Made by a program: the position numbers and the translations under genes. The notes below the pieces were generated by a model, which made no database searches, was not told the origin of the DNA, and saw only the letters and a list, made by a program, of their open reading frames with translations. From Candidatus Parcubacteria bacterium (GTDB taxonomy: Bacteria > Patescibacteriota > Minisyncoccia > Phycocordibacterales > UBA5272), in contig JBDKJD010000002.1 in the NCBI GenBank assembly GCA_039796775.1, positions 76,574-140,573 on the forward strand: a DNA stretch of 64,000 nucleotides. Reading direction: 5' to 3'. Below are positions 5,412-54,200 of this stretch, one piece after another (the first letter of the stretch is position 1; each line of letters opens with the position of its first letter).

Positions 5412-5420
5412 TATAAGGTT

Positions 5421-5996
5421 TTATTTGTTCTCCAGTTTTTGATACTTTTTGTAGAGAATGAAGATGATGAGCGTTGCTATAGAAAGTGAAACGATAGGAA
5501 GATAGGTGAGTGATACATTTTTGCCAAAGAAATATCCAATACTGATGAGTAACCCTCCCCAAATAAAAGAGGTGAATAAGAAAATGAAGAACATGATGAG
5601 GTTTCTTATTTTGGATAGCCCTGCGATGATAGGAACGAATACTTTTAATGATGGTATAAGCTTGGCGATGAATAGCCACCAAATGCCTTTTTGGTCAAAA
5701 AGTTTTTTTATTATGGAGTGACCTTTTTCAAATGTTGCATCATCCATAAGAAGTAGTTTTTGAGCGAGAGGCTTGTCATACTTTTTGATGAGGAGAAACG
5801 ATATCATATTCCCAAGTGTATTCCCAAGAGCTCCCGCTATGAGGCTTGGCACAAAAAGAAGTGGAGATGTAGCGATGAGGAATCCAACCAAGAGGTAGAG
5901 GATTTGTGAAGAAGGGAAGTTGACTACACCGTTTAATGTCATGAGAACAAAAATTCCTATATAAGAAAAATTGATGAGTATTGTTTCGAGTTCCAT
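5421..5996 (-). CDS. DedA/SNARE-associated family membrane protein
   Basis: DedA-like conserved N-terminal region and TM pattern. Confidence 0.65.
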   Translation of the reverse strand: MELETILINFSYIGIFVLMTLNGVVNFPSSQILYLLVGFLIATSPLLFVPSLIAGALGNTLGNMISFLLIKKYDKPLAQKLLLMDDATFEKGHSIIKKLFDQKGIWWLFIAKLIPSLKVFVPIIAGLSKIRNLIMFFIFLFTSFIWGGLLISIGYFFGKNVSLTYLPIVSLSIATLIIFILYKKYQKLENK

Positions 5997-12716: not shown

Positions 12717-12932
12717 ATGGTACAGAATATAAAAGATCAGTTACTAGCTTCCTTTGAGTCTATAGTTTTAGAGATAAAAAAACTTTCACCAGAAGAACAG
12801 GAAAAGTTTTTGTCTGCTTCGAATGATTATACGAGCAATATGTTGATGCACATAGAAGAGCTGAAACGAGAAGTCCAAGATATTGTAGAAAAAGCTCGCA
12901 TAGAAGAACTAGCGTCTAAGCTGGAATCATAA
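12717..12932 (+). CDS. small coiled-coil hypothetical protein
   Basis: ORF, charged heptad-like sequence. Confidence 0.25.
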   Translation: MVQNIKDQLLASFESIVLEIKKLSPEEQEKFLSASNDYTSNMLMHIEELKREVQDIVEKARIEELASKLES

Positions 12933-26544: not shown

Positions 26545-26964
26545 ATGCTATTCCCAAAAAAAGTAAAACATCGAAAGTGGCAGAATGCCCGCCTCTCAGA
26601 GGATAAGCTTGCACGTCCAGAAACAAAAGGAGTAGACGTTTCTTTTGGAGCGTTTGGTCTTAAGGCAGAGACTCCAGCTCGTGTAGCCGCTAATCAAATC
26701 GAAGCTGCTCGTCGAGCTATGCAACGTCACGCTGGCAAGACCGCCAAGGTGTGGATTCGTATTTTCCCTGATCGTCCAGTGACCAAGAAAGCCGCTGAGG
26801 TTCCTATGGGTAAAGGAAAGGGGGATCCAGATCGATACGTTTTTGAAGTTCGTCCAGGAAGAGTGCTTTTCGAGATTGATGGTGTTGGAGAAGATGTTGC
26901 TCGTGAAGCGCTTCGCAAAGCAGGGTGCAAGCTTCCTGTGAAAACTAAAGTAATCGCTCGCTAA
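26545..26964 (+). CDS. rplP: 50S ribosomal protein L16
   Basis: FGLKAETPARVAANQIEAARRAM...RMGKGKG. Confidence 0.95.
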   Translation: MLFPKKVKHRKWQNARLSEDKLARPETKGVDVSFGAFGLKAETPARVAANQIEAARRAMQRHAGKTAKVWIRIFPDRPVTKKAAEVPMGKGKGDPDRYVFEVRPGRVLFEIDGVGEDVAREALRKAGCKLPVKTKVIAR

Positions 26965-26968
26965 ATAT

Positions 26969-27223
26969 ATGAAAAAAGAAATTATAATTAATCGCAAAAA
27001 AATAACAGGGACAGTAGTCTCAGACAAGATGGATAAAACCGTTGTTGTTAACACTATGAGATACGTTGCTCACAAAAAATACGGCAAGTATTACAAAATA
27101 GACAAGCGTTACAAAGCTCATGACGAAGCTAACGAATACAAGGTTGGAGACAAAGTCATCATCGAAGAGTGTAGACCAATGTCAAAAGACAAAAACTTTA
27201 AAGTTGTTAGCAAGATTTCATAA
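26969..27223 (+). CDS. rpsQ: 30S ribosomal protein S17 (directly after L16; no L29 gene between)
   Basis: Translation; only 4 nt separate it from rplP. Confidence 0.9.
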   Translation: MKKEIIINRKKITGTVVSDKMDKTVVVNTMRYVAHKKYGKYYKIDKRYKAHDEANEYKVGDKVIIEECRPMSKDKNFKVVSKIS

Positions 27224-27263
27224 TTATTCTAACTACTATTATTAATCAATAATTACTACCAAT

Positions 27264-27644
27264 ATGATACAAGCAGGAACAAACGTTATCATCACCGATA
27301 ACTCAGGAGGAAAAAGAGGAAGAGTATTCAAGGTACTCGGTGGATCAAAGCGTAGATACGCTTCTCTTGGTGATATGGTAGTACTTTCGATTAAAGTAGC
27401 TGAACCACGAAAGCAGGTTAAGAAGAAAGATGTAGTATACGGTGTTGTTGTTCGTACAACAAAACAAGTACGTCGAGCGGATGGTTCATACATCTCATTT
27501 GATGACAATGCTGTTGTTATTGTCGACAAGAACAAAAAAGAACCAAAAGCAGGACGTGTCTTCGGGCCGATTCCACGAGAAATATCTCTTACAGGGATAG
27601 ATGGTTACAAGAAGATAGCTTCTCTTGCGCCAGAAATTATTTAA
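27264..27644 (+). CDS. rplN: 50S ribosomal protein L14
   Basis: MIQAGTNVIITDNSGGKR...VLGGS.RRYA. Confidence 0.95.
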   Translation: MIQAGTNVIITDNSGGKRGRVFKVLGGSKRRYASLGDMVVLSIKVAEPRKQVKKKDVVYGVVVRTTKQVRRADGSYISFDDNAVVIVDKNKKEPKAGRVFGPIPREISLTGIDGYKKIASLAPEII

Positions 27645-27670
27645 CAGCCGTTAGCTTTTAGCCTTTAGCT

Positions 27671-27958
27671 ATGAGCACATACAAAACTAATTTTAATATC
27701 ATGCACGTAAAAAAAGGAGACAATGTCATAGTGATAACAGGAAAGTACAAAGGACAAAAAGCCGATGTTGCTAAAATTCTTAAAGATGAGAACCGTGTTA
27801 TCTTAGAAGGGGTAGGGAAGGTGAAGCGCCATATGCGTCCTAAGAAGCAAGGTGAAAAAGGGGGTATTGTAGAAATAGCTACATCAATCCACGCCTCGAA
27901 TGTGAAATTAGCTGAAAAAGCTGCTCCAAAAAAGAAGGTTACCAAGAAAGCCGCTTAG
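27671..27958 (+). CDS. rplX: 50S ribosomal protein L24 (start may be MHVKKGD at 27701)
   Basis: KOW motif KKGDNVIVITGKYKGQKADV. Confidence 0.85.
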   Translation: MSTYKTNFNIMHVKKGDNVIVITGKYKGQKADVAKILKDENRVILEGVGKVKRHMRPKKQGEKGGIVEIATSIHASNVKLAEKAAPKKKVTKKAA

Positions 27959-28065
27959 CTTTTTCAGATAATTTCATCCAGCACTTTCAAGCTCAGTAGT
28001 CTTTCTTGGAAATATGCTTGAAAGTGTCGGAAAGATATATTCAAACTAGTAAGAACTTTGGCGCT

Positions 28066-28125
28066 GAAAAAGCTGCTCCAAAAAAGAAGGTTACCAAGAA
28101 AGCTGCTTCAAAAAAAGCTGAATAA
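28066..28125 (+). repeat. duplicated copy of the rplX 3' end (44/46 nt identical to 27910-27955)
   Basis: gctgaaaaagctgctccaaaaaagaaggttaccaagaaagc[c/t]gct present twice, 112 nt apart. Confidence 0.85.
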
Positions 28126-28187
28126 GAAAAGAAAAACGACACCTCATGGGTGTCGTTTTGAATTGCTACAGTTTCTTGATTCAAAGA

Positions 28188-29282
28188 TTAATTCAAAGGA
28201 AGCGAGAGTTGTATATTGTCATACTCATTATCTCCCGTCACTTCCTCTATCACTGGCAACCAAGGAGGGATTCTCACTTTGGTGTCGATAGAAGTGAGTT
28301 CTATTTCAAGAAGTATCAATGCCCCATTTTTTTGTGCACAAGCATACTCCTTTTCAAAAAAGTCGAGCTCAAAGTATTGATGGTCATAGACGAAACAGAC
28401 TCGTTTTTTGTGCAGAGAGGAAATTGCTTCATTTTTGAGCATTCGATATTCTCTCCCTGTTATATTCTCCTCTCTTTCTATACGAACACCTTTCCTCCCT
28501 GTGCTGTGTTTCCATGTCCGCGTATACACACTCACACCACCCTCTGTCCTACTGCGTACCCTACTTTTGTCGCTCAGATAATGTTGCTCGATCGAAGACA
28601 CAACATAGTTAACAGGAATCTTTTCCAAGCAAAAAGAAGAGTCAACTACGAATTTCTTTTCTATTTCAAGTGGTTCTGGTTCTCCTAGATGATGAAGAAT
28701 CACTCCAACAACGTGCGCCATCTTATGTTCAAAAGAATTTTGATTCTCAATCACATGAAGATGAGGATGCCCATTCCAAGCATTTAATGTCTTTTCACAA
28801 AGCGCTCTTGCTTCTTCTTTGGTCTCCTTTCTGGCGCTATTGTTGATAGTTGTATAGGAATCATCTTCACCAAATGCTGCTGTACGCAAATGAATGATAG
28901 CATCATAACGGCAGTTAATTGCTGTGTCAGAAAGATTGAATTGCTCCAGAAGATCGATCCACTCACTTTCTTTGCAATAGGCTTTATTGTCTTTTAATCC
29001 TCTATCAAAAAGAATGACGACTTTTTGATTCATTACCTTCTCTGCAAAAGTGAGATACGCTTGCTCACGAGCGAGTTGGCCTTCCATGATGCATTCTTGG
29101 AACTCATAGAAGGAGGTGCTTCCATTTGGGGTGATGCCAGATGAGATGAGCTCAGTCGCCATTTCTGGAACGGTGATGACCAAGTAACCAAGGTCATGTA
29201 ACTTTGACCGTATCTTGCTCATGCCTGTTGACTTGCCTGCGCATGGCCCACCAGTGATACAAAAACGATATATTTGCTTCAT
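28188..29282 (-). CDS. P-loop NTPase (AAA_28/nucleoside-kinase-like) fused to a C-terminal CYTH triphosphate-tunnel domain
   Basis: Walker A GGPCAGKST and Walker B VVILFD; C-terminal EIEKKF (ExExK), RVRSR, ELDFFE, LLEIEL CYTH signature; AAGGAA SD before the ATG at 29282. Confidence 0.6.
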   Translation of the reverse strand: MKQIYRFCITGGPCAGKSTGMSKIRSKLHDLGYLVITVPEMATELISSGITPNGSTSFYEFQECIMEGQLAREQAYLTFAEKVMNQKVVILFDRGLKDNKAYCKESEWIDLLEQFNLSDTAINCRYDAIIHLRTAAFGEDDSYTTINNSARKETKEEARALCEKTLNAWNGHPHLHVIENQNSFEHKMAHVVGVILHHLGEPEPLEIEKKFVVDSSFCLEKIPVNYVVSSIEQHYLSDKSRVRSRTEGGVSVYTRTWKHSTGRKGVRIEREENITGREYRMLKNEAISSLHKKRVCFVYDHQYFELDFFEKEYACAQKNGALILLEIELTSIDTKVRIPPWLPVIEEVTGDNEYDNIQLSLPLN

Positions 29283-29348
29283 ACTATTTCCTTTCATGAT
29301 TAAAACAACATCCAAAGTAATTATCTGACATAGTAAGCTATATGTAAT

Positions 29349-29407
29349 AGCTACATATAGCCATATTTGTTATATTTTTTGTTATACTATAGCTATATAT
29401 TGCTATG
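29349..29407. promoter_or_regulatory. two imperfect palindromes (GCTACATATAGC; ATAGCTATATATTGCTAT) in the divergent intergenic region, candidate operator (NrdR-box-like?)
   Basis: Seen in sequence; the second overlaps the nrdR-like ATG. Confidence 0.25.
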
Positions 29408-29866
29408 AAATGTTTTTATTGTAAGAGTAATAAAACACACGTTATTAACTCAAGAAAAATTAATACCACTTCTTCCGTGTGGCGTAGAAGAAAATGTCTT
29501 TCTTGTGAAGAAGTTTTCACAACAGAAGAATCTATCGCCACATCTTCGTTTTTTGTTATTAAAAAGAATCGTACCCGCAAACGTTTTGTATATGAAAAAC
29601 TATTCCTTTCAATTTTTATAGCGACCTCTCAAACTAAAAAAGTCGACATAGGGGACAGCTCTTTGTTAGCAAAAACGATAACTCATGAAGTATTGCATGA
29701 TCTAAGCATGCTTCGTTCAACACTCTTTTCCTCCAAAGAAATTATCTGCATGGTCTATAAAAAGTTACTTAAAAGAAACAAAAGCGCAGCGTTTCTCTAT
29801 GGAGTATATTCTCCATATCGTATAAAAGTTTTGCACAGTAATGGTTTTTTGAAAGATATACAATAA
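29405..29866 (+). CDS. nrdR: NrdR-like transcriptional repressor (zinc ribbon + ATP-cone)
   Basis: MKCFYCKSNKTHVINSR...VWRRRKCLSCEEVFTTEE matches the NrdR N-terminus MxCPxC..T.VIDSR...RRR.C..C...FTT.E. Confidence 0.65.
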   Translation: MKCFYCKSNKTHVINSRKINTTSSVWRRRKCLSCEEVFTTEESIATSSFFVIKKNRTRKRFVYEKLFLSIFIATSQTKKVDIGDSSLLAKTITHEVLHDLSMLRSTLFSSKEIICMVYKKLLKRNKSAAFLYGVYSPYRIKVLHSNGFLKDIQ

Positions 29867-29981
29867 GTAATCATCATCTGCTTTATTCTATCGAGCGTCT
29901 TGTTTTGAGTCATAGCTCAAGATTCTTTTATATGATAGAGTTGAAACAACCTGTTCTTTAATCATTTTTAGGAGATGTGAG

Positions 29982-30380
29982 ATGAAAGCTAGAAATCCAT
30001 TGTTGGATGTGGTTATTACTACCTCCTTCTCAGCCCTTACCTTTTTCTTGTTGTTGAAAATCAAACTCTTCGATGACAGTGTTGGCAATTTTGTTGTATG
30101 GCTGCATATCCTTTATCTGCTTGTGTTCATTATTGTCGTGATTGATAACAAATTTAGGGTTCGAGACATGAACGGAAAACTTTCCACCAAAATAAAAGAG
30201 TTGTTTTTTAGGTCGGAAGATTTTTTTGATGAAAATAATGCTATTTTTTATAGTTTCGCTCGCTTACTGTACACCCCTTTGGTATTTCTTCCATTCGGAA
30301 TAACCTTAATTTTCTTCTGTTCCCTGATTGATGGTCTCTGTCGATACATTAAAACAGGGCAGTGGAAAGAGAGTGTGTGA
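29982..30380 (+). CDS. hypothetical polytopic membrane protein
   Basis: ORF, 3-4 TM. Confidence 0.35.
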   Translation: MKARNPLLDVVITTSFSALTFFLLLKIKLFDDSVGNFVVWLHILYLLVFIIVVIDNKFRVRDMNGKLSTKIKELFFRSEDFFDENNAIFYSFARLLYTPLVFLPFGITLIFFCSLIDGLCRYIKTGQWKESV

Positions 30381-30392
30381 TCTGTCACTTTA

Positions 30393-30428
30393 GAGCCACT
30401 AATGCCGTAGGCATTAGTGGCTCTTTTC
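30393..30428 (+). terminator. terminator, GUAG loop
   Basis: gagccactaatgcc gtag ggcattagtggctc tttt. Confidence 0.6.
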
Positions 30429-30542
30429 ATATCATTCTTTTTATGGTAGAGTAATACAACATTATCAATTAAGAAGTGACGTATAACGTCTGGCTAGATA
30501 CGAAATATCGCCCCAGCTAATCGTGCTTCAAATATATACAAT

Positions 30543-31094
30543 ATGTCAAATTTTGTCAGTGTTAAAGAAATAGAAAAGAAGTCGTTTGAGATGCTCTCAA
30601 AACAATTTGGTTACAAGAATGTAATGGCTTCCCCTCATCTTACTAAGATAACAGTCTCAGTAGCTACAGGCACTGCGATGAAAAAAGATCGTCATCGAAA
30701 TGATCTTGTTATGGACCGTCTCGCTAAGATCACAGGGCAGAAGCCAACACTTCGCAAGGCGAAGAAGTCTGTCGCATCATTTAAGACTCGTGAAGGGGAT
30801 CCGATCGGAGTAGCTGTAACTCTAAGAGGGGATAGAATGTTCGCTTTTATTGATAAAGTACTTCACGTTGCTCTTCCTCGTACAAAAGACTTTAGAGGTA
30901 TCAATAGTACATCAGTCGATAATATCGGTAACATGACCTTTGGTGTTAAAGAACACACTATTTTCCCAGAAATCAAAGACGAAGAATTGAAAGATGTATT
31001 CGGTATGGCTATCACGCTTGTGACTACCGCAAAGACCAAAGAAGAAGCTAAAGCTTTCTTCGATATCATCGGTATTCCTTTCAAAAAAGCATAG
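30543..31094 (+). CDS. rplE: 50S ribosomal protein L5
   Basis: Translation. Confidence 0.95.
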   Translation: MSNFVSVKEIEKKSFEMLSKQFGYKNVMASPHLTKITVSVATGTAMKKDRHRNDLVMDRLAKITGQKPTLRKAKKSVASFKTREGDPIGVAVTLRGDRMFAFIDKVLHVALPRTKDFRGINSTSVDNIGNMTFGVKEHTIFPEIKDEELKDVFGMAITLVTTAKTKEEAKAFFDIIGIPFKKA

Positions 31095-31111
31095 TCTCTA
31101 TTCAAGATTTA

Positions 31112-31146
31112 AAAAACACTCGCAGCTTGCGAGTGTTTTTTGTTTG
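31112..31146 (+). terminator. terminator after rplE
   Basis: cactcgc agct tgcgagtg ttttttg. Confidence 0.55.
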
Positions 31147-31192
31147 TGACATAATGTCATTCTCATAGTTCTTTAATCAACATAAGGAGATA

Positions 31193-31480
31193 GTGATGGC
31201 AGTTGCACAGAGACGAATTCAGAGAGTTAATCCTTTTAATTTGAGTCGATATGAAGGTGGGTCAGGTGGAGAGCGAGCCCATATTCAACCAGCGATTGCT
31301 TTTTGGGGGACAGTCGGACACGTGAGTGATGGCTGTGCACCTGACCCACAAGAAGAGCTAGACGCTCTCCTTGGGCACGAAAAACAACAGCGAGTATTTG
31401 ACTTTTCAATGGTTGTGGGAGAGTTTTCTGATCCTTTATTATTTTTGATCGCTCTTGAAGAGGGTGAGAGAGAAGGTTAA
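31193..31480 (+). CDS. hypothetical protein in GC-enriched island
   Basis: ORF; local GC clearly above window background. Confidence 0.25.
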   Translation: MMAVAQRRIQRVNPFNLSRYEGGSGGERAHIQPAIAFWGTVGHVSDGCAPDPQEELDALLGHEKQQRVFDFSMVVGEFSDPLLFLIALEEGEREG

Positions 31481-31560
31481 TAAAACAAGAACAGCTTCAC
31501 ATCATCATCTAATAAAAAAACTGTCTCAAAAAGACAGTTTTTATATTCTAATTAAAAAAG

Positions 31561-31590
31561 AAAAAACCGCCGAGATGGCGGTTTTGTTAA
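31561..31590 (-). terminator. terminator for the minus-strand lipoprotein gene
   Basis: aaccgcc gagat ggcggtt with U-run on the minus strand. Confidence 0.5.
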
Positions 31591-31631
31591 CTGTAATCTT
31601 TTCAGATCGAGCTAACTTCCGGAAGTTGTAA

Positions 31632-32098
31632 TCAGCTCTTTGGTGCAGACGATGCAGCTGTCGGAGGCTGAGCGTTCGCGGCGCAAGGAGACTGTGACGG
31701 GGGAGCCTTTTTGAGGGCAGGATTCGCCATATTGCACGGTGTGCAAGAGTGGGTGCATGGCATCGAGGTGTGCCAAGTTGTCACCGTTTGTTGGTTGGGC
31801 TCTTCAAAGCCGCAAGCCTTGCCTGGCACCGATGTGATCGATGTTGAAACCTCATCACGGAACCATAAAAATCCGGTACGGATCTCAGTCACCTTTGCCA
31901 AACACGTCTTTGACGCGATGTCACCGATGAACACAGTGTTCGTGTAACCCATCTTTTTGACCACGATTTCGTTGTTGGCGATGGTTGTGACCCGGCCAGG
32001 ATCTCCAACAGGAATCGTTGGGGTGTCACCAGTGCGGCCGCAGCCAGTAAGCAGTGCCGCAAAGGCGACGGCGAAGAGCGCGAGGGTCTTTTTCATGA
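31632..32098 (-). CDS. putative lipoprotein (signal peptide + lipobox LLTGC), GC-rich (~55%) gene
   Basis: MKKTLALFAVAFAALLTGCG; compositional anomaly. Confidence 0.45.
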
Positions 32099-32254
32099 TG
32101 TTTTCTCCTATAAAAGTGGGCATCACCCCGTTTGAAAGTGCATACGTTTACAAAGCAATGCTTTAAAAACGATATGATAATTATATCATTTATTATATTA
32201 ATGTCAATAGACTATATTGACATTAAAATATAAATATGGTAGGGTGCATATATT

Positions 32255-33565
32255 ATGAAAAAAATAGCAACAATTATTACATTAATAGTGAGCGCTTTTG
32301 CGCTTCAAAACAGCGCTTTTGCTGGGTATTTTAGTACCACCCCGCTTCCTGTTTGTGATGCGAGAATCAGCAACAATCTTGCGCGAGGGAGTGAAAATGA
32401 TGATGTTTTGAGACTTCAGAATTTGCTTGCGCGTACAGGATATCTTAACGCTTCTCCAAATGGATACTTCGGATATCAAACAGAAAGAGCAGTCAAAGCG
32501 TTTCAGCGAGATAACGGTCTTCATGGATCAGGTATCGTTGGTGAACAAACCCGTAATTTTGTTAATGAGAGAATGTGTGACACGGATTCTTTCTCAGATG
32601 AAACATTATATTATGGTGGATACTCTTCACTCACAACATATGTAAATACTGAAGATCCTTTTGTTAAAGTTGTGCTCCCGAACACATCATCTGCTATTTT
32701 GAGTACCCCCTCTGTTAGTTCTCTTACTTCAACTTCGCTTTCTAGTGTATTACCAGTCAACACATCTGTTGCTGTGACTAATCCAGAGATTGCAGGAACT
32801 TCTATTGTATATAATCCAGCTATTGGATACACCTATAGTATTATTCCAGCAAGTGGTTCTCTTACTGTCACTTCTCCGGTAGCTAATAGTGTGTTTAAAG
32901 AAGGGGATACGGTTACTGTTGTATGGGGGACTAAGAATTTAACCGCATCTACCTATTCTATTTTGCTTGAGAATACTTCAGTTGGTCAAAGCTATACTGT
33001 CGCTCAAACAAATAACACTTCATTTTCTTTTGTACTCACAAAAGAAATATTAGATGGCGCTTGTGCTGGAGCATGTAATGCTTCTAATCAAGGGTCATAT
33101 AGAATTGTTGTGGCTACTCCAACCAAAGATATAGCTGGAACTATCTCAACACTTCGTGCTGCTGTACAACCAATTACTGTAGTACGTCAATTCGGTTATT
33201 CAGGACAGGTGAGTATTACAACAAACAAGACCCCTGTTACTTCTGGTGAACCATTCAAGCTCTATATTAATATTCCACGAGGTGCTTCATGGGATACATA
33301 CTTGGCAGGTAATTATTCAATCAAAATAAAAGCGAGTTGCCCAAGTGGAGTCTCTGCATCTATTGCTGGTACTCTTTGTGGTCAAGAATTCGTGATTCCT
33401 TTTGCGCCAACATTTTATCAACAAGAGGTTCCTGCTGTTATTACAAATGGAACATGGTTTAGACAAAATGTTCAATTCGACTTAACAGTGACGAATTTGG
33501 CAGGTCAAACAATTGGTACATCTCAAACAAATGTTATCGTAAACGGGACACCATTTAGTTGGTAA
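32255..33565 (+). CDS. secreted protein with Cys-bracketed PG_binding_1-like domain and Ser/Thr-rich region (paralog 2)
   Basis: Signal peptide; DVLRLQNLLARTGYL...GYFGYQTERAVKAFQRDNGLHGSGIVGEQT. Confidence 0.55.
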   Translation: MKKIATIITLIVSAFALQNSAFAGYFSTTPLPVCDARISNNLARGSENDDVLRLQNLLARTGYLNASPNGYFGYQTERAVKAFQRDNGLHGSGIVGEQTRNFVNERMCDTDSFSDETLYYGGYSSLTTYVNTEDPFVKVVLPNTSSAILSTPSVSSLTSTSLSSVLPVNTSVAVTNPEIAGTSIVYNPAIGYTYSIIPASGSLTVTSPVANSVFKEGDTVTVVWGTKNLTASTYSILLENTSVGQSYTVAQTNNTSFSFVLTKEILDGACAGACNASNQGSYRIVVATPTKDIAGTISTLRAAVQPITVVRQFGYSGQVSITTNKTPVTSGEPFKLYINIPRGASWDTYLAGNYSIKIKASCPSGVSASIAGTLCGQEFVIPFAPTFYQQEVPAVITNGTWFRQNVQFDLTVTNLAGQTIGTSQTNVIVNGTPFSW

Positions 33566-33607
33566 GATGATAGTTACTGGTTTATAGTTACTGGTTACTG
33601 CAAATAC

Positions 33608-33638
33608 AAAAGCCGCCCCTTCGGGGCGGCTTTTGTAT
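33608..33638. terminator. bidirectional terminator, UUCG tetraloop
   Basis: aaagccgcccc ttcg gggcggcttttg. Confidence 0.6.
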
Positions 33639-33652
33639 TGCCTCACAGCACT

Positions 33653-34057
33653 TTAAGATAAAAGGTTTTTTATATAAAACATTATAGCTGAAGTAACTCC
33701 CATGAGAATTGTCCCCCATAATACATCGACTACTACTAGCTTGAAAGGCCAAGAGCTTAGTGTTGCCATATTGGTGAGATCATAGAATGCATACATGAGG
33801 AATCCAAGTATTGCTCCCCATAACAACGCTTCTTGAAGAGTATTTACTCTTGATAAAACAAAGACCCATATAGAGATAATCGCAACGATATAGAATCCAA
33901 CAACAGCAGGGAAGTAAGGGACGAGAGAACCATTTTCTATAGTGATATGAGATGCTAGTTTGTCCAAATAAAAAGCCTTAGCAACGTTGGCAAGCCACAC
34001 ATAGTCCATAATAGTAATAGTGATAATTCCTACAAAAGAAGTGATGACATGAAGCAT
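33653..34057 (-). CDS. DUF2177-like small membrane protein (ORF is open up to 34261; internal Met at 34057 preferred)
   Basis: ALLWGAILGFLMYAFYDLTN conserved-looking motif; the longer N-terminal extension would overlap a plus-strand promoter and small gene. Confidence 0.4.
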   Translation of the reverse strand: MLHVITSFVGIITITIMDYVWLANVAKAFYLDKLASHITIENGSLVPYFPAVVGFYIVAIISIWVFVLSRVNTLQEALLWGAILGFLMYAFYDLTNMATLSSWPFKLVVVDVLWGTILMGVTSAIMFYIKNLLS

Positions 34058-34153
34058 GATGATTGTAGTGTACACCTTTTGACTTTGTTTTAGAAATGGT
34101 ATAAAGTCTAAACATCGTAATCGTTCTTTAACTATTTTTAAGGAGACACGATC

Positions 34154-34354
34154 ATGTCTAAAAGTGAAATGGTCTCGCCTGGAGAAGGGGCTTTTTTCCA
34201 AAGTGTAAAAGATTTCAAGCCAAGTCACTTCTTCCTTTTGTTGCTTAAAATAACCACTCAAGGTTCAAGGTTTGGCATGGAGACGCAGAGTATCGTTGAC
34301 AGAGTAAACCGCCAGCTCCAGAGAGACCTGGGATGTAAACCGAGATCTCTCTAA
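34154..34354 (+). CDS. small hypothetical protein (66 aa) with SD, promoter-like TTGACT-N15-TATAAA (34079-34105) and downstream hairpin (34391-34420)
   Basis: AGGAG 8 nt before the ATG. Confidence 0.3.
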   Translation: MSKSEMVSPGEGAFFQSVKDFKPSHFFLLLLKITTQGSRFGMETQSIVDRVNRQLQRDLGCKPRSL

Positions 34355-34581
34355 AAGGTATTGATGGACAAACGGGTGATACCTCTTTAAGCAGAGCGCA
34401 GCAGAAGCGCTCTTTCTTTTTGTCTTATTCTGTGGTATTATATTTCTGTTCTTCATTTCTCCATACCTTAACCCAAGATTAAATTAGTTTTGTGTAAATG
34501 TATGCGATAGGAGAAGAACAAAACCAACCTCACTTCTCGTGAATCATTGGTTGTATTATTTATTCAATTCTCTACTCTCTT

Positions 34582-34767
34582 ATGGCAAAAACATCAACAA
34601 TTGCAAGAAGTAACAAGAAACCTAAATTCTCAACACGTATAGTGAACCGATGCTTTAAATGTGGTCGAAAGCACGGATTTATGAGAGATTTTGGTCTTTG
34701 CAGAACATGCTTCCGTGAGCTCGCTAACGAAGGAATGATCGCAGGGGTCAAGAAGGCGTCTTGGTAA
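34582..34767 (+). CDS. rpsN: 30S ribosomal protein S14, zinc-ribbon Z type
   Basis: 61 aa, CxxC...Cxx[17 protein letters not shown]. Confidence 0.9.
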
Positions 34768-34779
34768 TATTTCAAATTT

Positions 34780-35163
34780 ATGGATCCAATAGCAAACATG
34801 CTCGTAGCCATCAAAAACGGTGGCCTCGTCAAAAAATCTTCAGTCGTTATTCCTTCATCAAAAATGAAGGTGGCGATTCTAGAAGTTCTCAAGAAAGAAG
34901 GATTTGTGAAGACATATCATGTAAGTGACACAGTTACTCCTACTGTAGAAGTGGTAATCGCTTACGAAAAAGGTCTTCCAAAGATTAACAATGTTACTCG
35001 TGTTTCTAAGCAATCAAAGCGAGTGTACAAAGGGGTTAAGAAAATCACTCCTTACAAATATGGTCATGGAATGACTGTATTCACTACCCCTAAGGGGATA
35101 CTCACTGATAAAGAAGCGAAAGCTTCTCATGTCGGAGGTGAGGCATTATTCACAATCTGGTAA
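34780..35163 (+). CDS. rpsH: 30S ribosomal protein S8
   Basis: MDPIANMLVAIKNG... Confidence 0.95.
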   Translation: MDPIANMLVAIKNGGLVKKSSVVIPSSKMKVAILEVLKKEGFVKTYHVSDTVTPTVEVVIAYEKGLPKINNVTRVSKQSKRVYKGVKKITPYKYGHGMTVFTTPKGILTDKEAKASHVGGEALFTIW

Positions 35164-41343: not shown

Positions 41344-44055
41344 ATGAATAAAGATTTTGGGCTTCTTCAGAATGAAGTCGACCTTCTCCGAGAAAGAATA
41401 AAAGAAAAGCAAGAAAAAGCAAAAGGGTATGAAGACAGATTCACACCAAAAGATAGTGCTCATGAAGTAGTGAGAGACTATAAGTCCACCCCTACAGAAC
41501 GGGTTATTGAAGATAAACACAGAATAAGCGAAGGAGAAAAACATCGCCTTCTAGAGTGGCTCACTCCTCGAGATACTGACAGTCAGGTGAGTATGCTCGC
41601 ACAAGTAATGGCAGAAAAGGGGATCAAAAATGCTCTTGTGATGGCGGAGCAATTATCGAACCCTCAAGTCGAAGATGATTTTGAGCGATTCCTGGTGCAA
41701 TATTTACTCTCAGGTCATTCTGCCAAGAATGATATCAGTAAAGAAGAATGGAAAGCGCTTCATATGAAGCTTTTTGAAGTTGTGCTTCCTCAAGCTGCAG
41801 AAGGCCAAGGGAAACAAATAAAAGAGATGATGGGGCTTATGGAGCAGTGGTACGCTTCTATGCAGGCGCTCGCGAGTGATGTTCTTAATAAAGAAAAAAA
41901 CTATTACTCTCTTGAGCTTTCTGTGGCTAACGGTCAAAAGACAGCTGTATTTTATTGTGCTGTACATATTGATTATGCTCCGCTTTTTGAAAAAGTTGTC
42001 ATCGGAGTATTCCCAACTGCAAAAGTAAAAGAAAATAAAGAAGACTACAATATATTCCACCCTCACGCTATCACGGCGTGCTCATACGCAACCCATAGCA
42101 CTCACCCAGCTCTTCCTATCAAAACGTATGCGAGTATGGAAGGGGATCCGATGTCGCTTCTCTTGTCGTCATTTACTAAAATAGCCAAAGATGATGAAGG
42201 GTTGGCACTACAGATACTGATTCGTCCTTCTGGAGATGTCTTCGCTAAACGTTTCGGTACAATGCTTGAAGATTTGAGAAAAGGGGAGACCTTGAAGCGA
42301 GTTATTGATAAGCAAAGTCTTTTCAAGGAATCGCTTCACATGATAGGAGAAATGTTCTCTTCAAAAACAAAAGAGGAAAAAGAAAAAGAAAAAAAGGATA
42401 ATTTCACCCATGTTGATGAGAATGCGAGCAAGCTTATTCAGGAGAAATTATCTAAAACAATTATAGAAACCAATGTGCGTATTATTTCTGCAGCTCCTAC
42501 TCTCTCCCGCGCTCAAGCACTTCGTGCCGATCTAGAATCCGCTTTTGCTCAATTCTCAGAAGTGGGCGGTAATAGCATTATCTGGAAAGAGGTAGAAGGT
42601 TCTAAACAGAGAGCACTTCTCCACCGTTTCTCATATCGTTTATGGAATGATGATGAGAGTTATCCTCTTAATGTGTCAGAACTTGCTTCACTTTTTCATT
42701 TCCCGATGCAGTCAAAAGATGTTGGGAATGTCCAAGCTGCAACATATACCCAAGCCCAAGCACCAGAAGATCTCGGACAAGAGGGTTCTATTATTGGCAA
42801 AAATATGTATAGAGGAGAAGAGACAACAATTCACTTTGGAAAGGAGGACAGAGTAAGACATATGTATGTTATCGGACAAACAGGTACCGGTAAAACAATT
42901 CTCTTGAAGAATATGATTATTCAAGATATCAAAAATGGTGACGGATGTTGCTTCATTGATCCTCACGGTAGTGATATTATTGATATTTTGGCGAATATTC
43001 CACCTGAGCGAGCAAAAGATGTTGTGTATTTTGATCCCTCATATACCGCGCGCCCAATGGGGCTTAATATGCTCGAATATGATAGAGATAAACCAGAGAC
43101 GAAGACATTCGTAGTAAATGAACTTCTTGGAATATTCAATAAGCTTTTTGATATGAAAGCAACAGGGGGGCCTGGGTTTGAGCAATACTTCCGTAATGCC
43201 ACACTTCTTGTAATGGAACATCCAGAAAGTGGTAATACACTGCTTGATATTTCTCGCGTATTCTCTGACAAAGATTATCGTGACTACAAACTCTCAAAGT
43301 GTAAGAACCCTCTTCTTAATCAATTCTGGGCGAATGCTGAGAAGACTACAGGAGACCAAGGGCTTCAGAACTGGGTACAATATGTTAACTCAAAGTTCGA
43401 TATTTTTATGACCAATGACATCATGAGACCGATCATTGCTCAAGAGAAAAGCGCTTTTAATTTTAGAGAGATTATGGATTCGAAGAAAATTTTCCTCGTG
43501 AATCTTTCAAAAGGACGTCTCGGAGACATGAATGCTTATCTTCTTGGTCTTATCATTGTCGGCAAGTTCTCCCAAGCGGCACTCTCGAGAGTGGATACTC
43601 ATATTCGTCCTGACTTTTATCTTTATATTGATGAATTTCAAAATGTGACTACACCAGCGATTGCGTCTATATTGTCAGAAGCTCGTAAGTATAGATTATC
43701 TCTTACCGTGGCACATCAGTATATTGCACAGCTTCCAGAAGATATTAAAGGGGCAGTCTTTGGTAACGTCGGGTCGATGGCGGTATTCCGCATTTCGCCT
43801 GAGGATGCCAAGTTTTTGGAGCCGCAATTTGCCCCAACGTTTACTGCTAATGATATTATTAAAATTGAGAATTGGCATGCATATGTGAAGTTATTATCAA
43901 ACGGTCAACCGAAGCGACCTTTTGATATAGCTACACTTCCCCCAGATCAAGGGGATAGGAGTAGGATAGAGCCGCTCAAGGAGTTAAGTTATCTCACCTA
44001 TGGTCGTCCGCTTGAAGAAGTTAATGAGGAGATAATGAAGAAGTTTCAGTTTTGA
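41344..44055 (+). CDS. 903-aa HerA/DUF87-like P-loop ATPase with TraG/TraD-type C-terminal region (T4SS coupling-protein-like) and ~450-aa uncharacterized N-terminal extension
   Basis: GQTGTGKT then FIDPHGSD; Walker B YLYIDEFQN; ARKYRLSLTVAHQ. Confidence 0.6.
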   Translation: MNKDFGLLQNEVDLLRERIKEKQEKAKGYEDRFTPKDSAHEVVRDYKSTPTERVIEDKHRISEGEKHRLLEWLTPRDTDSQVSMLAQVMAEKGIKNALVMAEQLSNPQVEDDFERFLVQYLLSGHSAKNDISKEEWKALHMKLFEVVLPQAAEGQGKQIKEMMGLMEQWYASMQALASDVLNKEKNYYSLELSVANGQKTAVFYCAVHIDYAPLFEKVVIGVFPTAKVKENKEDYNIFHPHAITACSYATHSTHPALPIKTYASMEGDPMSLLLSSFTKIAKDDEGLALQILIRPSGDVFAKRFGTMLEDLRKGETLKRVIDKQSLFKESLHMIGEMFSSKTKEEKEKEKKDNFTHVDENASKLIQEKLSKTIIETNVRIISAAPTLSRAQALRADLESAFAQFSEVGGNSIIWKEVEGSKQRALLHRFSYRLWNDDESYPLNVSELASLFHFPMQSKDVGNVQAATYTQAQAPEDLGQEGSIIGKNMYRGEETTIHFGKEDRVRHMYVIGQTGTGKTILLKNMIIQDIKNGDGCCFIDPHGSDIIDILANIPPERAKDVVYFDPSYTARPMGLNMLEYDRDKPETKTFVVNELLGIFNKLFDMKATGGPGFEQYFRNATLLVMEHPESGNTLLDISRVFSDKDYRDYKLSKCKNPLLNQFWANAEKTTGDQGLQNWVQYVNSKFDIFMTNDIMRPIIAQEKSAFNFREIMDSKKIFLVNLSKGRLGDMNAYLLGLIIVGKFSQAALSRVDTHIRPDFYLYIDEFQNVTTPAIASILSEARKYRLSLTVAHQYIAQLPEDIKGAVFGNVGSMAVFRISPEDAKFLEPQFAPTFTANDIIKIENWHAYVKLLSNGQPKRPFDIATLPPDQGDRSRIEPLKELSYLTYGRPLEEVNEEIMKKFQF

Positions 44056-50527: not shown

Positions 50528-51208
50528 TTACTAGTTTTTAGTTACTGGTTACTAGAGATTAAAGACTCGCATAATAGATTTACTAATGTTTCTTTGTTAT
50601 CTATTTTGTTACAGTATCTGCCCTCCCAAGATTCTGAGCGTTGAGCAGCTATTTTTCCTCACTGTTTAGGTTATGTGTGAGCTTCGGCACCCTAGTAACC
50701 ATAAACTGGTAACCAGCAACTATTTTTGACTTTTGATGGCTAAAATGAGATAATAAAGGGATAGTACAGTAATGTACTATAAATAGTTTTATCCACATGT
50801 ATCCGAAGAGAATCATTGATTCTCTTTATATGCATAGATATACTATTTGTAGACGTCTCTGTTTGAGAGCGTCCTCTGGTATTTGAGATACATTTATAAG
50901 GTATCTTGAAGACAGGTTAAGATCATTGACAACAGAATAGTGACGCAAGAAGACTAAGTGAGCCTTTCCTTACAATGTTATTTTTTATTGAGGCGATAAC
51001 AATAATCTATTTAAAACATAGATCGTTACCTTCTTTAAAAAAATGTGATGGTAAGAAAAGTACTCGTTATCTATTACGCTTACATTCGATTGTTAAAGAT
51101 CGTCTGTCAAAAAAATGTACATGTTAGTTTATGTCGAAACTATTACAAACATGTACAGTGTGCTTCCTTAAAAGAAGTACATCACGTACTTATAAAAATC
51201 ATAACGTT

Positions 51209-54200
51209 ATGTCTAATTTCTCAATGAAGATTGCTACAGGAGTAGCGGTCATCGGAGGTATCGTAGCTGGTGCAGTTTCTGCACAAGCTGCTCTCAACCT
51301 TCCAACAATGAGCTGTGGATACACATTCAACACGAATATGCGTCTCGGTTCACGTGGTACAGATGTAATGAACCTTCAAAAGGTTCTTAACATGTATCCA
51401 CAAACACAAATCGCTTCATCAGGAGCTGGTTCTCCAGGAATGGAAACTACAACTTTTGGTCCAGCGACTCGTGCTGCAGTTAACAAGTTCCAAGCTCTCC
51501 ATTTAGCTGAGCTCGGAGTTACTGCTCCTACAGGAAACGTGTTCGCAGGAACTCGTGGACTCCTTAACCAAGTTTGTTCAGGTACAACCTCAACAACACC
51601 TACAACACCAGGTAACGTTGTATCAGGTCCAGTGTCTGCGATGCTTGGATCATCACAACCTACAGGTATGCTTGTAGCTAGCCAATCAGGTGCTCGTCTC
51701 GCTGATATTACTTTCTCAGGTAATGGGACTGTAACTAACATCGAACTCCAAAGAACTGGAGTTTCAGCAGACTCAACACTTACAAACGTATACCTCTATG
51801 ATGGTAACGTTCGTATTTCTGATGCAGCATCTGTAATCACAGGTGGATTCATCAGATTCAACTCATCTACTGGTCTTTTCTCAGTGAGTGGAACTCGTAC
51901 TATTACTGTACGTGCTGACATCGCTTCAGGAACATCAGGACAATCAGTTGGTGTGAAGCTTAATTCAGTAACTGCAGGAGGTGCAGCATCTACTTACACT
52001 AACGTGATGGGTAACATGCTCCAAATCGGTTCAGCAACTCCAGCTACTGTTAACTTCTCAACAATCACTACATCAGACACTAACGTTGACGCAGGAACTC
52101 AAGGTTACAAGCTTTGGGAAGGTACTGCTTCAGTTGGTACACGTGATGTAATGTTTAGATCTGCTACATTCAAGTTCGTTGGTTCAGCTCCAGTTGATGC
52201 AGCTGCTAACATCTCTCTCTATGTAGATGGATCTAAGGTTGCTGGTCCTATGATGATCAACGCTGCGAACAACAACAAGCTCTCATTTGATCTTGGTTCA
52301 GGTGTTCTTCTCCGTACAGGATCTCGTACAATCGAGGTTCGTGGAGACATCGTTAAGGGTTCAAACCGTACTATGACTTTCTCAGTAGAGAACGTTGCTG
52401 ATCTTATGTTCGAGGATACATCACTTGCTGGTGTTAACTCAGCTGCGACAGTTTCTAACGCTGCTTTGACTCAGTCAAACACAACATACAGAACAATCAC
52501 TGTTAACTCAGGATCTGTAACTGTAAACGTTGACCCTGCTTACTCTGCAAACAAAGTAACAGGTGGAGCAACTAATGTAACAATTGGTCAATTCACTCTT
52601 AAGGGATATGGTGAAGATGTGAAGGTTAACAACCTCCAAATCGCTCCTGCTCTTACAAGTGCATCTCCTTACAACGGTGGTATGTCAAATGTGAGCCTTT
52701 ATGTAAACGGTGGACAAGTCGGAACTTCACAGAACTGGACTGGATCAGCGCTTACATATAACCTTGGTTCATCACTTATCATCCCTGCTGGTCAAACTGT
52801 AACTCTTGCAGTTAAGGCTGACGTTCGTAACGCTACTTCATCAACTTCATATACAGCTGGTTCTGTATCTGTAACAATTGGTGGTGTTGCTTCTAACGCA
52901 CAAGGACAATCTTCTAACCAAATTGTAACTGTAGCTGGTGGTGCTGGTGTAACTGGTAATACTCTTACTGTTTCATCAGGTGCTGGATCATTCGCTCGCA
53001 CATCAGGTTTTGCTGCTGTGACTATCGCTCCTAACACAACTAATGTTAGAATCGGTTCATTCACACTACAAGCTGATTCATCTGAGGATATTCGTGTAAC
53101 TTCAATTGGAGTTAATCCAGCTGTTACTACTTACGCGATTACTAACCTCTCAAACCTTACTGTTCGTTCAAATGGTGTTGTAGTGGGTACTCCAGTTGGT
53201 AACCCAGCTGCTGGAACTTCTACATACTCATTCTCTGATATTGTTATCCCTGCTAACTCAACTCGTACTTTCGAAGTATTCGCTGATGTGGCTGGTGCAA
53301 CTTCAGGTAACGTAAATGCAGCAATGCAAATTACTTACAGAGGATCAGTTAGTAACACTACTACTACTTCATCAGCTTCTGGTGTAGCTATCACTTCAGC
53401 CGCTTCAACTCTTGCAGCAGCTACTCTTGTGAGCTCATCTCCAGTTGCTCAATTCGTAGTAGGTGGAACAACATTCGGTATCGCAACATTCAAGCTCTCT
53501 ACAGCTGCGGCTGGAACAGTAGCTAATGTTCGTGAGCTCCGCTTCACAACTACTGGAACTGACGCTATTGAGTCAATTACAGTAGGTGGAGTAACAGCTC
53601 CTGTAATCTCAGGAGGTACAACTACTGTTTCAGGTCTTAACATCGCTATCTCATCAACTGGTACTGATGTTCCTGTAACTGTTAAGTACTCTGGATTCCA
53701 GAACTCAACTACAGGTGGTTCTCTCACAGCTGGTGTAGCGTCTGTATACGTAACACTTGGTCATATTGAAGCTACTTCAGGATCAGGTACTGTTATCACA
53801 AGCGTTACTCCTGTTAACTCAAATACAATGACACTTGTTGCTTCAAAGCCAACTGTTACTGTATCAGGAACTCAAGGAGGAGTACTCATCCTTGGTGCTG
53901 AAAACAAAGTGGGTGAATTCACTGTAGCTGCTGATGCTAACGGTAAGGTTTCTATCTCTACAACAACTGTAAACCTTACAGGTAACAACATTACAGGTGT
54001 ACAATTTGCATCACCTCGTATTGCTGATGGAAACACAACAATTTCTTCAGGTTCTGTAACTGGTTCATCAACAATGGTGATCTCATTTGTTCCTGGTTAT
54101 GAAATCTCTGCTGGTCAGTCTAAGACTTTCTCACTCTACGCAACTGTAACAGGTGCTTCAGTATCTGGAACAACAGCGTATGTAGCGTCTAGTCTTACTG

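Follow-up and report, generated by a model that had tools for sequence, protein, structure and literature searches.

Within the window, the 64-kb stretch of DNA analysed here, the interval between rplX and rplE holds three genes: a minus-strand gene encoding a P-loop kinase fused to a CYTH domain (kinase-CYTH), a divergent nrdR and a small membrane ORF. This arrangement had been given in a preliminary description of the locus, and all three genes are present. The upstream ribosomal block is closed by the ORF called as rplX (L24; 27671..27958, plus strand). At the rplX position in relatives there is a match to the Pfam family Ribosomal_L24, and the tblastn identity of rplX is 55-65%. A terminator-like hairpin on the minus strand with an 11-bp stem (28133..28159), which probably works in both directions, separates rplX from the 3′ end of kinase-CYTH. 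Kinase-CYTH itself occupies 28188..29282 on the minus strand and encodes 364 aa, with the kinase domain at residues ~1-200 (29282-28683) and the CYTH domain at residues ~204-364 (28673-28191). It is followed by nrdR (29405..29866, plus strand; 153 aa) and by the membrane ORF (29982..30380, plus strand; 132 aa). An intrinsic terminator with a 15-bp perfect stem and a T run (30392..30424, plus strand) ends the unit of nrdR and the membrane ORF. The ribosomal cluster restarts at rplE (L5; 30543..31094, plus strand), for which Pfam Ribosomal_L5/L5_C matches were recorded in L001, a record of the same organism reached through the nrdR product. An Rfam scan of positions 27000-35000 gave no match at gathering score. 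The locus shows the spc ribosomal operon of the clade broken up by insertions.

The membrane ORF contains ~3-4 hydrophobic segments, three of them long, and fits the small polytopic membrane protein described earlier. No family match was found for it, and it is not conserved in the loci of relatives. It is a strain-specific passenger of the nrdR transcription unit. The idea of a three-gene cassette kept as a unit holds for the pairing of kinase-CYTH with nrdR, which recurs in relatives (40-51% identity), but not for the membrane ORF, which lies outside the conserved cassette.

The kinase-CYTH ORF was called at 28188-29315 (375 aa). The true start is the ATG at 29282 (MKQIYRF..., 364 aa), as indicated by the AAAGGAA just upstream, the N-termini of all homologues and an independent 364-aa call in L001. 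The N-terminal half, previously described as AAA_28-like, matches the profile of this family (PF13521) across residues 17-197 of the ORF as called (375 aa), scoring 72.8 bits where the cut-off is 27. The Walker A motif, GGPCAGKS, is invariant among the homologues. A structure search with an AF2 model showed an NMP-kinase-like fold, with NadR-RNK, TMPK and dNK as the closest structures. The likeness to the ribosylnicotinamide kinase of NadR and to thymidylate and deoxynucleoside kinases lies in the strong AAA_28 match, the Walker A motif and a DRG (DRY-like) motif. NadR also has an N-terminal HTH, which is found on Firmicute homologues of kinase-CYTH as well. However, the NMN adenylyltransferase domain of NadR is absent from the window protein, and no solved kinase exceeds 17-20% identity to it. 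The domain is best described as a predicted AAA_28 small-molecule kinase, NadR-RNK- or thymidylate-kinase-like, in which no residues diagnostic of a phosphoryl acceptor such as nicotinamide riboside could be picked out.

The assignment of the C-terminal half to the CYTH family was not returned by the Pfam search of the window protein itself, as CYTH (PF01928) gave no match at E<=0.1 and the NCBIfam CYTH models likewise gave none. It is nevertheless upheld by three other lines of evidence. A phmmer search with the window protein retrieved NeuTTM (2fbl/3typ) at E=0.02, and a family profile searched against the PDB covered essentially the whole NeuTTM chain at E=2e-12. The AF2 model (pLDDT 90.3) is all-beta from residue 205, and its best Foldseek match is NeuTTM (7e-10), followed by YgiF and SaTTM. 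The PF01928 miss is attributed to limited HMM sensitivity, since many homologues of the window protein carry PF01928 and the family profile matches NeuTTM so well. The ExExK motif is present as E206-I-E208-K-K210, invariant in 17 homologues and aligned with the EIERKF of NeuTTM. Also invariant are the basic residues R241/R243/R245, K258 and K292/R294, the tyrosine Y235, and the acidic pairs E269/E271, E305/D307 and E326/E328, which are aligned along the NeuTTM chain. The ExExK and acidic motifs noted in the preliminary description align to NeuTTM in the profile search, and every catalytic motif is intact.

NeuTTM is the NE1496 protein of Nitrosomonas europaea (PDB 2FBL/3TYP), a specific inorganic triphosphatase. 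It stands with the CthTTM-type bacterial CYTH proteins as the nearest known system, and is the best match in both sequence and structure over residues ~204-364. The ExExK motif, the Arg/Lys tunnel residues and the acidic metal-binding pairs are common to both, and the proposed Tyr28/Lys52 dyad of NeuTTM corresponds to Y235/K258. NeuTTM stands alone, whereas the window CYTH domain sits behind a P-loop kinase. As the nearest CYTH relative, NeuTTM simply hydrolyses inorganic triphosphate and is neither a cyclase nor an alarmone synthase (PMC3440374). The CYTH half, NeuTTM-like and with its catalytic residues intact, is predicted to be a triphosphatase, most likely one that acts on inorganic triphosphate or on nucleoside triphosphates.

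A parallel had been drawn with the plant proteins TTM1 and TTM2. The order of the domains, a P-loop kinase followed by a CYTH tunnel domain, is indeed shared, but the parallel does not extend further. The plant kinase is UCK/PRK-type, whereas that of the window is AAA_28/NadR-RNK/TMPK-like and its Pfam match is not PRK. The C-terminal coiled coil and transmembrane tail anchor of the plant proteins have no counterpart in the window protein, whose last residue, 364, belongs to the CYTH domain. The tunnel domain of AtTTM1 is catalytically incompetent (PMC9582702); in contrast, all of the catalytic residues are kept in the window CYTH domain. These differences in kinase type, catalytic residues and C-terminal architecture point to a fusion that arose independently of plant TTM1/TTM2.

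The product of the divergent gene contains a zinc ribbon followed by a probable ATP-cone, and its earlier identification as NrdR-like is borne out by profile and structure matches. The zinc ribbon (Zn_ribbon_NrdR, PF22811) matches at E=3.1e-14, its 53 bits exceeding the cut-off of 27.2, and its four cysteines (C3, C6, C31 and C34) are invariant in the clade. The ATP-cone (PF03477) is found at E=6e-4 with 20.7 bits, below the cut-off of 25.8, and PF03477 is carried by most clade relatives. The TIGR00244 equivalog model scores 67.6 bits, also below its cut-off (124.65), and structures of E. coli NrdR match residues 1-129 at E~6e-9. The label ‘divergent’ is accurate in view of these scores. The nrdR ATG has no upstream Shine-Dalgarno sequence.

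Similar to the canonical NrdR of E. coli, S. coelicolor and Streptococcus/Listeria, the clade protein has the four-Cys zinc ribbon ahead of a probable ATP-cone, and R17, R27-R29, V51, K53 and K65 are present. DNA recognition by NrdR involves D15, R17, R26, R28 and R37, and nucleotide contact involves V51, K53, E59 and K65, of which E59 contacts the inner-site ATP (PMC12176259). Three of the five DNA-recognition residues are changed and fixed in the clade (D15N, R26W and R37V/I), with R17 and R28 kept. Many of the more distant NrdR-like proteins of the CPR have N15 and W26 as well. V51, K53 and K65 are conserved, whereas E59 is replaced by K in the window protein, by K or R in nearly all clade members and by V in one (L095). 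From a reading of the sequences, the more distant CPR NrdRs mostly retain Glu at this position. The window protein also has no basic residue at the position that aligns with R126 of E. coli. As a result of these substitutions the effector, and even DNA binding, could differ from those of canonical NrdR. A further difference from known NrdR systems is that the clade nrdR lies inside a ribosomal-protein cluster and not beside nrd genes. It is a local variant of a known regulator and not a new kind of system.

The intergenic region between kinase-CYTH and nrdR is 122 nt long (29283-29404). Near-palindromes had been reported in this shared control region of ~120 nt; they are real, and the predicted functional units are two 16-bp NrdR boxes. 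Box 1 (TAGCTACATATAGCCA, 29348..29363) and box 2 (TAGCTATATATTGCTA, 29390..29405) are separated by a 26-bp spacer, and the final base of box 2 is the A of the nrdR ATG. Six positions of the NrdR box, C4/A6/A8/T9/T11/G13, are highly conserved (PMC13584703); all six are present in both boxes, and the same positions are the most conserved columns among 26 clade boxes. Known NrdR systems likewise have two 16-bp partially palindromic boxes over a promoter. The 26-bp spacer falls in the long class of four helical turns described in Streptococcus, where spacers of 24-27 bp are native; in vitro, four NrdRs bind boxes spaced in this way (PMC12051234). The nrdR gene is reported to be often under the control of its own product (PMC9110341). 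Autoregulation is known for nrdRJ of S. coelicolor, and the window nrdR has a predicted operator at its own promoter. The clade boxes are flanked by T1...A16, whereas the classical NrdR-box consensus has a...t. A further box-like sequence (AAGCTATATGTAATAG, 29335..29350) forms a 10-5-10 palindrome with box 1 (29337-29361) and is not conserved in relatives.

A candidate sigma-70-like promoter of kinase-CYTH (ATTACA-17-GATAAT, 29320..29348, minus strand) was recognised by its consensus match, and the -35 hexamer of this promoter touches box 1 or overlaps it. Judged by eye, the sequences of most relatives appear to have a -10-like hexamer ~22 nt from the edge of box 1. In the window, a box-pair scan returned this pair only, against one pair in total over 20 shuffled windows, with a position weight matrix (PWM) that was trained on these very sites. 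Stronger evidence against chance is the same positioning of the boxes in 13 diverged loci. Two box-like cores at 12836/12876, 40 bp apart, were rejected; they fall within a 71-aa ORF, their flanks are not symmetrical and the PWM pair scan does not recover them.

In all 13 related loci the two boxes hold precisely the same places, -57 and -15 relative to the nrdR ATG, with the spacer of 26 bp. The nrdR gene lies between L24 and L5 in 12 of the 12 loci whose flanks reach either gene. The divergent partner is more variable: kinase-CYTH in eight loci, the kinase alone in one (L093) and unrelated small ORFs in three (L094, L097 and L098). Both boxes and nrdR are kept in these last four. The invariant element of the clade is nrdR with two boxes at a fixed distance from its ATG, and the persistence of the boxes without the kinase indicates that an autoregulated nrdR is the conserved core. 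Other genes around the slot in relatives include T2SSE, large surface proteins and small ORFs. Where kinase-CYTH is present, it is still divergent from and adjacent to nrdR even though both proteins have diverged to ~40-50% identity. In eight of the nine kinase-bearing loci the intergenic region is 122-132 nt, with 65-75 nt between box 1 and the kinase ATG, a distance that leaves room only for a promoter touching the box; in the ninth (L114) the distance is 215 nt. The nrdR-linked kinase-CYTH genes form an exclusive clade in a neighbour-joining (NJ) tree of 90 sequences, which argues for one old association inherited with nrdR. Kinase-CYTH is plausibly an old, monophyletic and co-repressed neighbour of nrdR.

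The AAA_28-CYTH family is much wider than this clade; at least 577 matches were confirmed among the GTDB species genomes, mostly in gut Firmicutes. Outside the clade, neither an NrdR neighbour nor a strong upstream box pair was found in 79 other genomes. A scan for canonical-consensus pairs upstream of kinase-CYTH in 80 GTDB genomes gave a strong pair in the clade member L013 alone, the remaining pairs being noise at a lax threshold. The sole recurrent neighbour of the Firmicute homologues is an ECF-type S component (8/80 loci), and these homologues often carry an XRE HTH of their own. Involvement in anti-phage defence was considered and rejected; PADLOC returned nothing for the three proteins, with HTH matches only for a fused Firmicute homologue. 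A phage origin was likewise rejected, as PHROGs gives only a CYTH family of unknown function. In the literature searched, no paper was found that joins NrdR to CYTH or AAA_28 or deals with NrdR in Patescibacteria, and none that names both CYTH and AAA_28.

The reported absence of nrd genes nearby is confirmed within the 64-kb window by a Pfam scan of 20 large and mid-size ORFs, including every ORF of at least 500 aa. The scanned ORFs encode FtsK, RecA, EF-P, EF-G, ComEC, a DinB-like protein, CofD, RNase H, SecY, MAP and similar proteins, and two large ORFs have no Pfam match. There are also no nrd genes in ~200 kb of clade loci. The PWM pair scan found no further operators in these ~200 kb or in 75 more distant NrdR loci (467 kb). 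The distant CPR nrdR genes are near a GT-like membrane protein, thrS and tgt, and not near RNR genes. The only target seen for the clade NrdR is its own divergent promoter region, as predicted from the boxes.

The reading considered somewhat probable is that this clade of Saccharibacteria-like bacteria (CPR/Patescibacteria) has a resident, autorepressed nrdR set permanently between rplX and rplE, with a two-box operator and probable co-repression of the divergent kinase-CYTH. NrdR loaded with deoxynucleotide/nucleotide effectors would assemble as a tetramer on the boxes at 29348-29363 and 29390-29405. On this four-helical-turn operator it would sit over both the promoter and the start site of nrdR, repressing its own gene. 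As box 1 abuts the -35 of the divergent promoter, its occupancy would probably silence the neighbouring gene too. In most clade members this neighbour would be a bifunctional enzyme, combining an AAA_28 kinase with a NeuTTM-like triphosphate tunnel domain. Conserved divergent pairs of regulator and enzyme genes are usually a sign of regulation. The co-repression would be optional, since the boxes are in fixed register with nrdR rather than the kinase and are also found in loci without the kinase. A rival and rather doubtful view is that the two genes are neighbours only. In that case nrdR would be autoregulated and kinase-CYTH would be a long-lived occupant of a variable slot, with its own unregulated promoter and functionally unconnected to NrdR or dNTP metabolism. 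The changing contents of the slot, down to small ORFs or a kinase alone, the other genes around it and the wide gap in L114 all agree with this, as does the family elsewhere, which is free of NrdR neighbours and strong box pairs and is accompanied by an ECF-type S component or an XRE HTH. Set against it are the divergent adjacency kept despite extensive protein divergence, the monophyly of the linked kinases, and the difficulty of placing an operator-free promoter in the short intergenic region of eight of the nine kinase-bearing loci.

The preliminary description had instead proposed a nucleotide-pool or alarmone-type module. In this scheme a repurposed NrdR-like protein, possibly with a changed effector, would act as a dedicated sensor-regulator of kinase-CYTH apart from RNR. 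Agreeing with it are the E59K/R change at the inner-site ATP contact (PMC12176259), where distant CPR NrdRs mostly have Glu, the ATP-cone below the Pfam cut-off, the 64 kb without nrd genes or another operator, the old and monophyletic divergent pairing and the fully intact CYTH catalytic residues. However, the box sequence and geometry are canonical and tied to nrdR, the operator and nrdR are kept in three loci without the enzyme and in one without its CYTH half, and NeuTTM, the nearest of the CYTH relatives, is simply an inorganic triphosphatase (PMC3440374). A single window without nrd genes is also silent on the rest of the genome, and elsewhere the family is NrdR-free. The module is unsupported by these data and is regarded as improbable. 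A bolder extension of the preferred reading, under which resident NrdR also co-represses kinase-CYTH, is that NrdR has gained a non-RNR target. The four-turn operator would co-repress kinase-CYTH in (deoxy)nucleotide salvage or triphosphate clearance, and NrdR with E59K/R would read a nucleotide signal different from that of canonical NrdR. This is held to be unlikely; if true, a host-dependent bacterium without de novo nucleotide synthesis would have rewired a universal dNTP sensor onto salvage.

NrdR is seen as an RNR-specific repressor and has been explored as an antibacterial target. The locus offers a compact predicted operator of ~60 bp, with a 26-bp spacer kept in 13 loci, and a natural NrdR variant in which DNA-contact and ATP-contact residues are changed. 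It also points to a candidate member of the NrdR regulon outside RNR, kinase-CYTH, whose family is large and uncharacterised. If the co-regulation fails, the locus would still be a clean predicted case of nrdR autoregulation and of insertion into the spc operon. If the co-regulation is real, it would be the first clue to what the AAA_28-CYTH family does, linking it with the dNTP and nucleotide economy of host-dependent bacteria.

An nrdR-like gene (29405-29866, plus strand; 153 aa) sits within the S10/spc ribosomal-protein cluster, which the window, a region of low GC content (about 0.38-0.40), carries on its plus strand. The gene is one of three non-ribosomal genes that separate rplX (27671-27958, plus) from rplE (30543-31094, plus), which confirms the three-gene insertion noted previously. 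Divergent from nrdR is a minus-strand gene, kinase-CYTH, whose product fuses an AAA_28 P-loop kinase to a C-terminal CYTH (triphosphate tunnel) domain. The ORF listing gives this frame as 28188-29315 (TTG start, 375 aa). The gene is taken here as 28188-29282 (ATG at 29282, 364 aa), as the N-termini of all homologues match residues from this ATG (MKQIYRF...), AAAGGAA stands upstream of it, and a separate gene call from the same organism (L001) also has 364 aa. The third gene (29982-30380, plus) encodes a 132-aa protein with three long hydrophobic segments. Its proposed membership of a module is not upheld, as a search of the compared loci found it elsewhere in L001 alone. A hairpin terminator (28133-28159) lies between rplX and the 3′ end of kinase-CYTH and another, with a perfect 15-bp stem (30392-30424, plus), 3′ of the membrane ORF, which suggests that transcription of the ribosomal cluster is broken between rplX and rplE.

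The cluster has further irregularities. The final 46 nt of rplX (27911-27956) are repeated with 98% identity 152 nt downstream (28063-28108), and the approximately 106 nt between the copies are rich in inverted repeats. As relatives carry a 179-205-aa ORF at this spot, the duplication resembles a scar left by deletion or rearrangement. A second insertion (31100-34580) parts rplE from rpsN and comprises a small ORF (31193-31480) and a lipoprotein-like ORF (31632-32126, minus), followed by the genes of a 436-aa PG_binding_1 protein (32255-33565) and a DUF2177 membrane protein (33653-34261, minus). The recurrence of a PG_binding_1 gene 3′ of rplE in the related loci L003, L005, L093 and L094 points to a fragmented spc operon as a clade trait. 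Adjoining the 3′ side of the lipoprotein-like ORF, in a GC-richer kilobase (0.45), a sub-threshold match to the Rfam rimP leader (31516-31617, minus; 38.1 bits vs a gathering score of 47, E=0.0017) probably reflects no more than a structured terminator region. rpsQ follows rplP after just 4 nt (26964-26969) with no intervening rpmC (L29), as in L002, L003, L093 and L094; L30 is missing between S5 and L15 in L094. Two ORFs of 903 and 1056 aa (41344-44055 and 51131-54301) have no Pfam match (E≤1e-5).

The 122-nt region between kinase-CYTH and nrdR contains two 16-bp putative NrdR boxes, box 1 (TAGCTACATATAGCCA, 29348-29363) and box 2 (TAGCTATATATTGCTA, 29390-29405), the last base of the latter being the A of the nrdR ATG. 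Both possess C4, A6, A8, T9, T11 and G13, the positions highly conserved in NrdR boxes (PMC13584703). The two near-palindromes of the preliminary description survive as two conserved boxes; the larger palindrome (29337-29361) comprises box 1 and an overlapping third box-like sequence that is not conserved in other loci. The spacer is 26 bp, with 42 bp, or four helical turns, from centre to centre. Most streptococci natively use spacers of this long class, and in vitro all four NrdRs tested had a further, weaker optimum of affinity at 24-27 bp, where E. coli NrdR binds better than at its own short-spacer sites and the other three bind 7- to 70-fold worse (PMC12051234). nrdR has no upstream Shine-Dalgarno sequence. 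Elements resembling promoters occur between the boxes or overlapping them (TGtTATACT at 29380-29388 in the window), so that box 2 likely covers the nrdR start site. On the minus strand, the best promoter match (ATTACA-17-GATAAT, 29348-29320) touches box 1 with its -35 element.

The clade was represented by 13 loci (the window, L002, L003, L005, L013, L093-L099 and L114), gathered by exact-protein look-ups and by genome and metagenome scans; L013 is labelled Candidatus Saccharibacteria. Identities are 45-51% for NrdR and 73-80% for L5. The boxes begin exactly at -57 and -15 from the nrdR ATG in all 13, and sequence upstream of -60 is unconserved. Columns 1, 4, 6, 8, 9, 11, 13 and 16 are the most conserved across the 26 boxes. 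In 12/12 loci with flanks reaching at least one of L24 and L5, nrdR is placed between these two genes. As described previously, no nrd genes are nearby: neither these nor other box pairs were found in the window or in the roughly 200 kb of sequence from clade loci, which is uninformative on the rest of the genome.

The regulator itself is divergent. The zinc ribbon is recognised (E=3e-14), the ATP-cone match (20.7 bits) is under the Pfam cut-off and the score is half the TIGR00244 equivalog cut-off; E. coli NrdR structures align over residues 1-129 (E about 6e-9). Among the functionally important residues listed in PMC12176259, R17 and R28 for DNA recognition are retained, and the clade has D15 changed to N, R26 to W and R37 to V or I. 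The nucleotide-binding residues V51, K53 and K65 are retained in the window. E59, which contacts inner-site ATP (PMC12176259), is replaced by K in the window, by K or R in nearly the whole clade and by V in L095. The site aligned with E. coli R126 is Leu in the window and Lys/Arg in relatives. N15 and W26 are shared with many more distant CPR NrdR-like proteins, most of which retain Glu59 in the printed sequences compared, so the E59 change appears particular to the clade. Distant genes of the N15/W26 type (L100-L174, 30-43% identity) repeatedly have as neighbours the gene of a glycosyltransferase-like membrane protein of ~530 aa (43 loci), thrS (25 loci) and tgt (17 loci), and never have RNR genes within 4 kb.

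The divergent partner of nrdR is less constant. Full kinase-CYTH occupies the slot in eight loci (the window, L002, L003, L005, L013, L096, L099 and L114), an AAA_28-only protein in L093 and unrelated small ORFs in L094, L097 and L098. In eight of the nine loci with a kinase, box 1 and the kinase ATG are 65-75 nt apart. In a neighbour-joining tree of 90 sequences the eight linked proteins group together to the exclusion of all others, which argues for a single origin of the association and its inheritance along with nrdR, followed by loss or replacement. The L093 protein (5259-5873; 204 aa) is 35% identical to the kinase half and has no CYTH, indicating that the two domains can exist apart in the lineage. 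L097 (9424-9912) and L098 (9452-9868) share a small protein family with the motif GxVDRSDLxxGNFTYSE.

Pfam AAA_28 recognises the N-terminal part of the fusion protein (residues 17-197 in the 375-aa ORF; 72.8 bits vs a cut-off of 27), and the top structural match of the kinase domain, of TMPK/dNK-like fold, is NadR RNK. The Pfam CYTH model gave no match at E≤0.1, a result set beforehand as counting against the proposed domain. Despite this, the C-terminal half is assigned as CYTH from several profile and model comparisons: phmmer matched it to NeuTTM structures 2FBL/3TYP (E=0.02), many homologues contain PF01928, a 17-member family profile matches NeuTTM (E=2e-12) over virtually its full length, EIERKF strand included, and an AlphaFold2 model (mean pLDDT 90.3, pTM 0.88) retrieved NeuTTM as best Foldseek match (7e-10), then YgiF and SaTTM. 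Family-invariant residues are ExExK (E206, E208, K210), R241/R243/R245, K292/R294, E269/E271, E305/D307 and E326/E328, together with Y235 and K258, which align with Tyr-28 and Lys-52, the proposed catalytic dyad of NeuTTM (PMC3440374). The tunnel domain thus looks catalytically competent, whereas that of plant AtTTM1 is incompetent (PMC9582702). The suggested parallel with plant TTM1/2 extends to domain order only, as those proteins have a UCK-type rather than an AAA_28 kinase and their own coiled coil and membrane anchor; AtTTM1 is not among the Foldseek matches listed.

A word-indexed protein search with kinase-CYTH gave 2433 matches, and at least 577 pattern matches in GTDB species genomes were confirmed (577 of the first 600), mostly from gut and rumen Firmicutes, with some from Bacteroidota and other CPR. 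An N-terminal XRE-type HTH is present in many Firmicute members (about 434 aa), and an ECF-type S-component gene (PF07155) is immediately upstream in 8/80 GTDB loci. In such examples as L009 (4454-6305) and L010 (325-2176), HTH-fused homologues follow an S-component gene that often overlaps. This layout recalls NadR/PnuC-type salvage units. Outside the clade, 0/79 GTDB loci have an nrdR neighbour and 0/79 a convincing NrdR-box pair upstream. PADLOC returned no defence match for the enzyme, and a literature search found no paper on the AAA_28-CYTH architecture. A copy sharing about 40% identity with the window protein (L044, 6001-7077) lies on a contig binned as Candidatus Nanoarchaeia; its nearest tree neighbour is from Azambacteria (CPR), and it could be a transfer or a binning error.

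Given its conservation across the clade, a self-regulated nrdR lodged in the ribosomal cluster appears to be the primary feature of the locus; control of nrdR by its own product is known (PMC9110341). Kinase-CYTH would be an old neighbour. Conserved divergent regulator-enzyme gene pairs usually indicate regulation, and co-repression with nrdR is plausible because the kinase-CYTH promoter can hardly avoid the operator. It is not required by the evidence, since the boxes stay at a fixed distance from nrdR and are retained where the enzyme is missing. Participation of the enzyme in (deoxy)nucleotide economy would agree with its modelled TMPK/dNK-like fold and NrdR logic; the NadR RNK match and the genomic settings in Firmicutes (HTH fusion, ECF S component) are equally suggestive of vitamin or nucleoside salvage. 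The alarmone-type module of the preliminary description is not borne out: no evidence for alarmone or cyclase chemistry was found, and the nearest CYTH relative, NeuTTM, is simply an inorganic triphosphatase. The analysis confirms the observation and supports its first interpretation in part. NrdR and its operator constitute a known system; what appears new is the unusual genomic home, the residue substitutions and a candidate non-RNR target of NrdR, which comes from an uncharacterised enzyme family.
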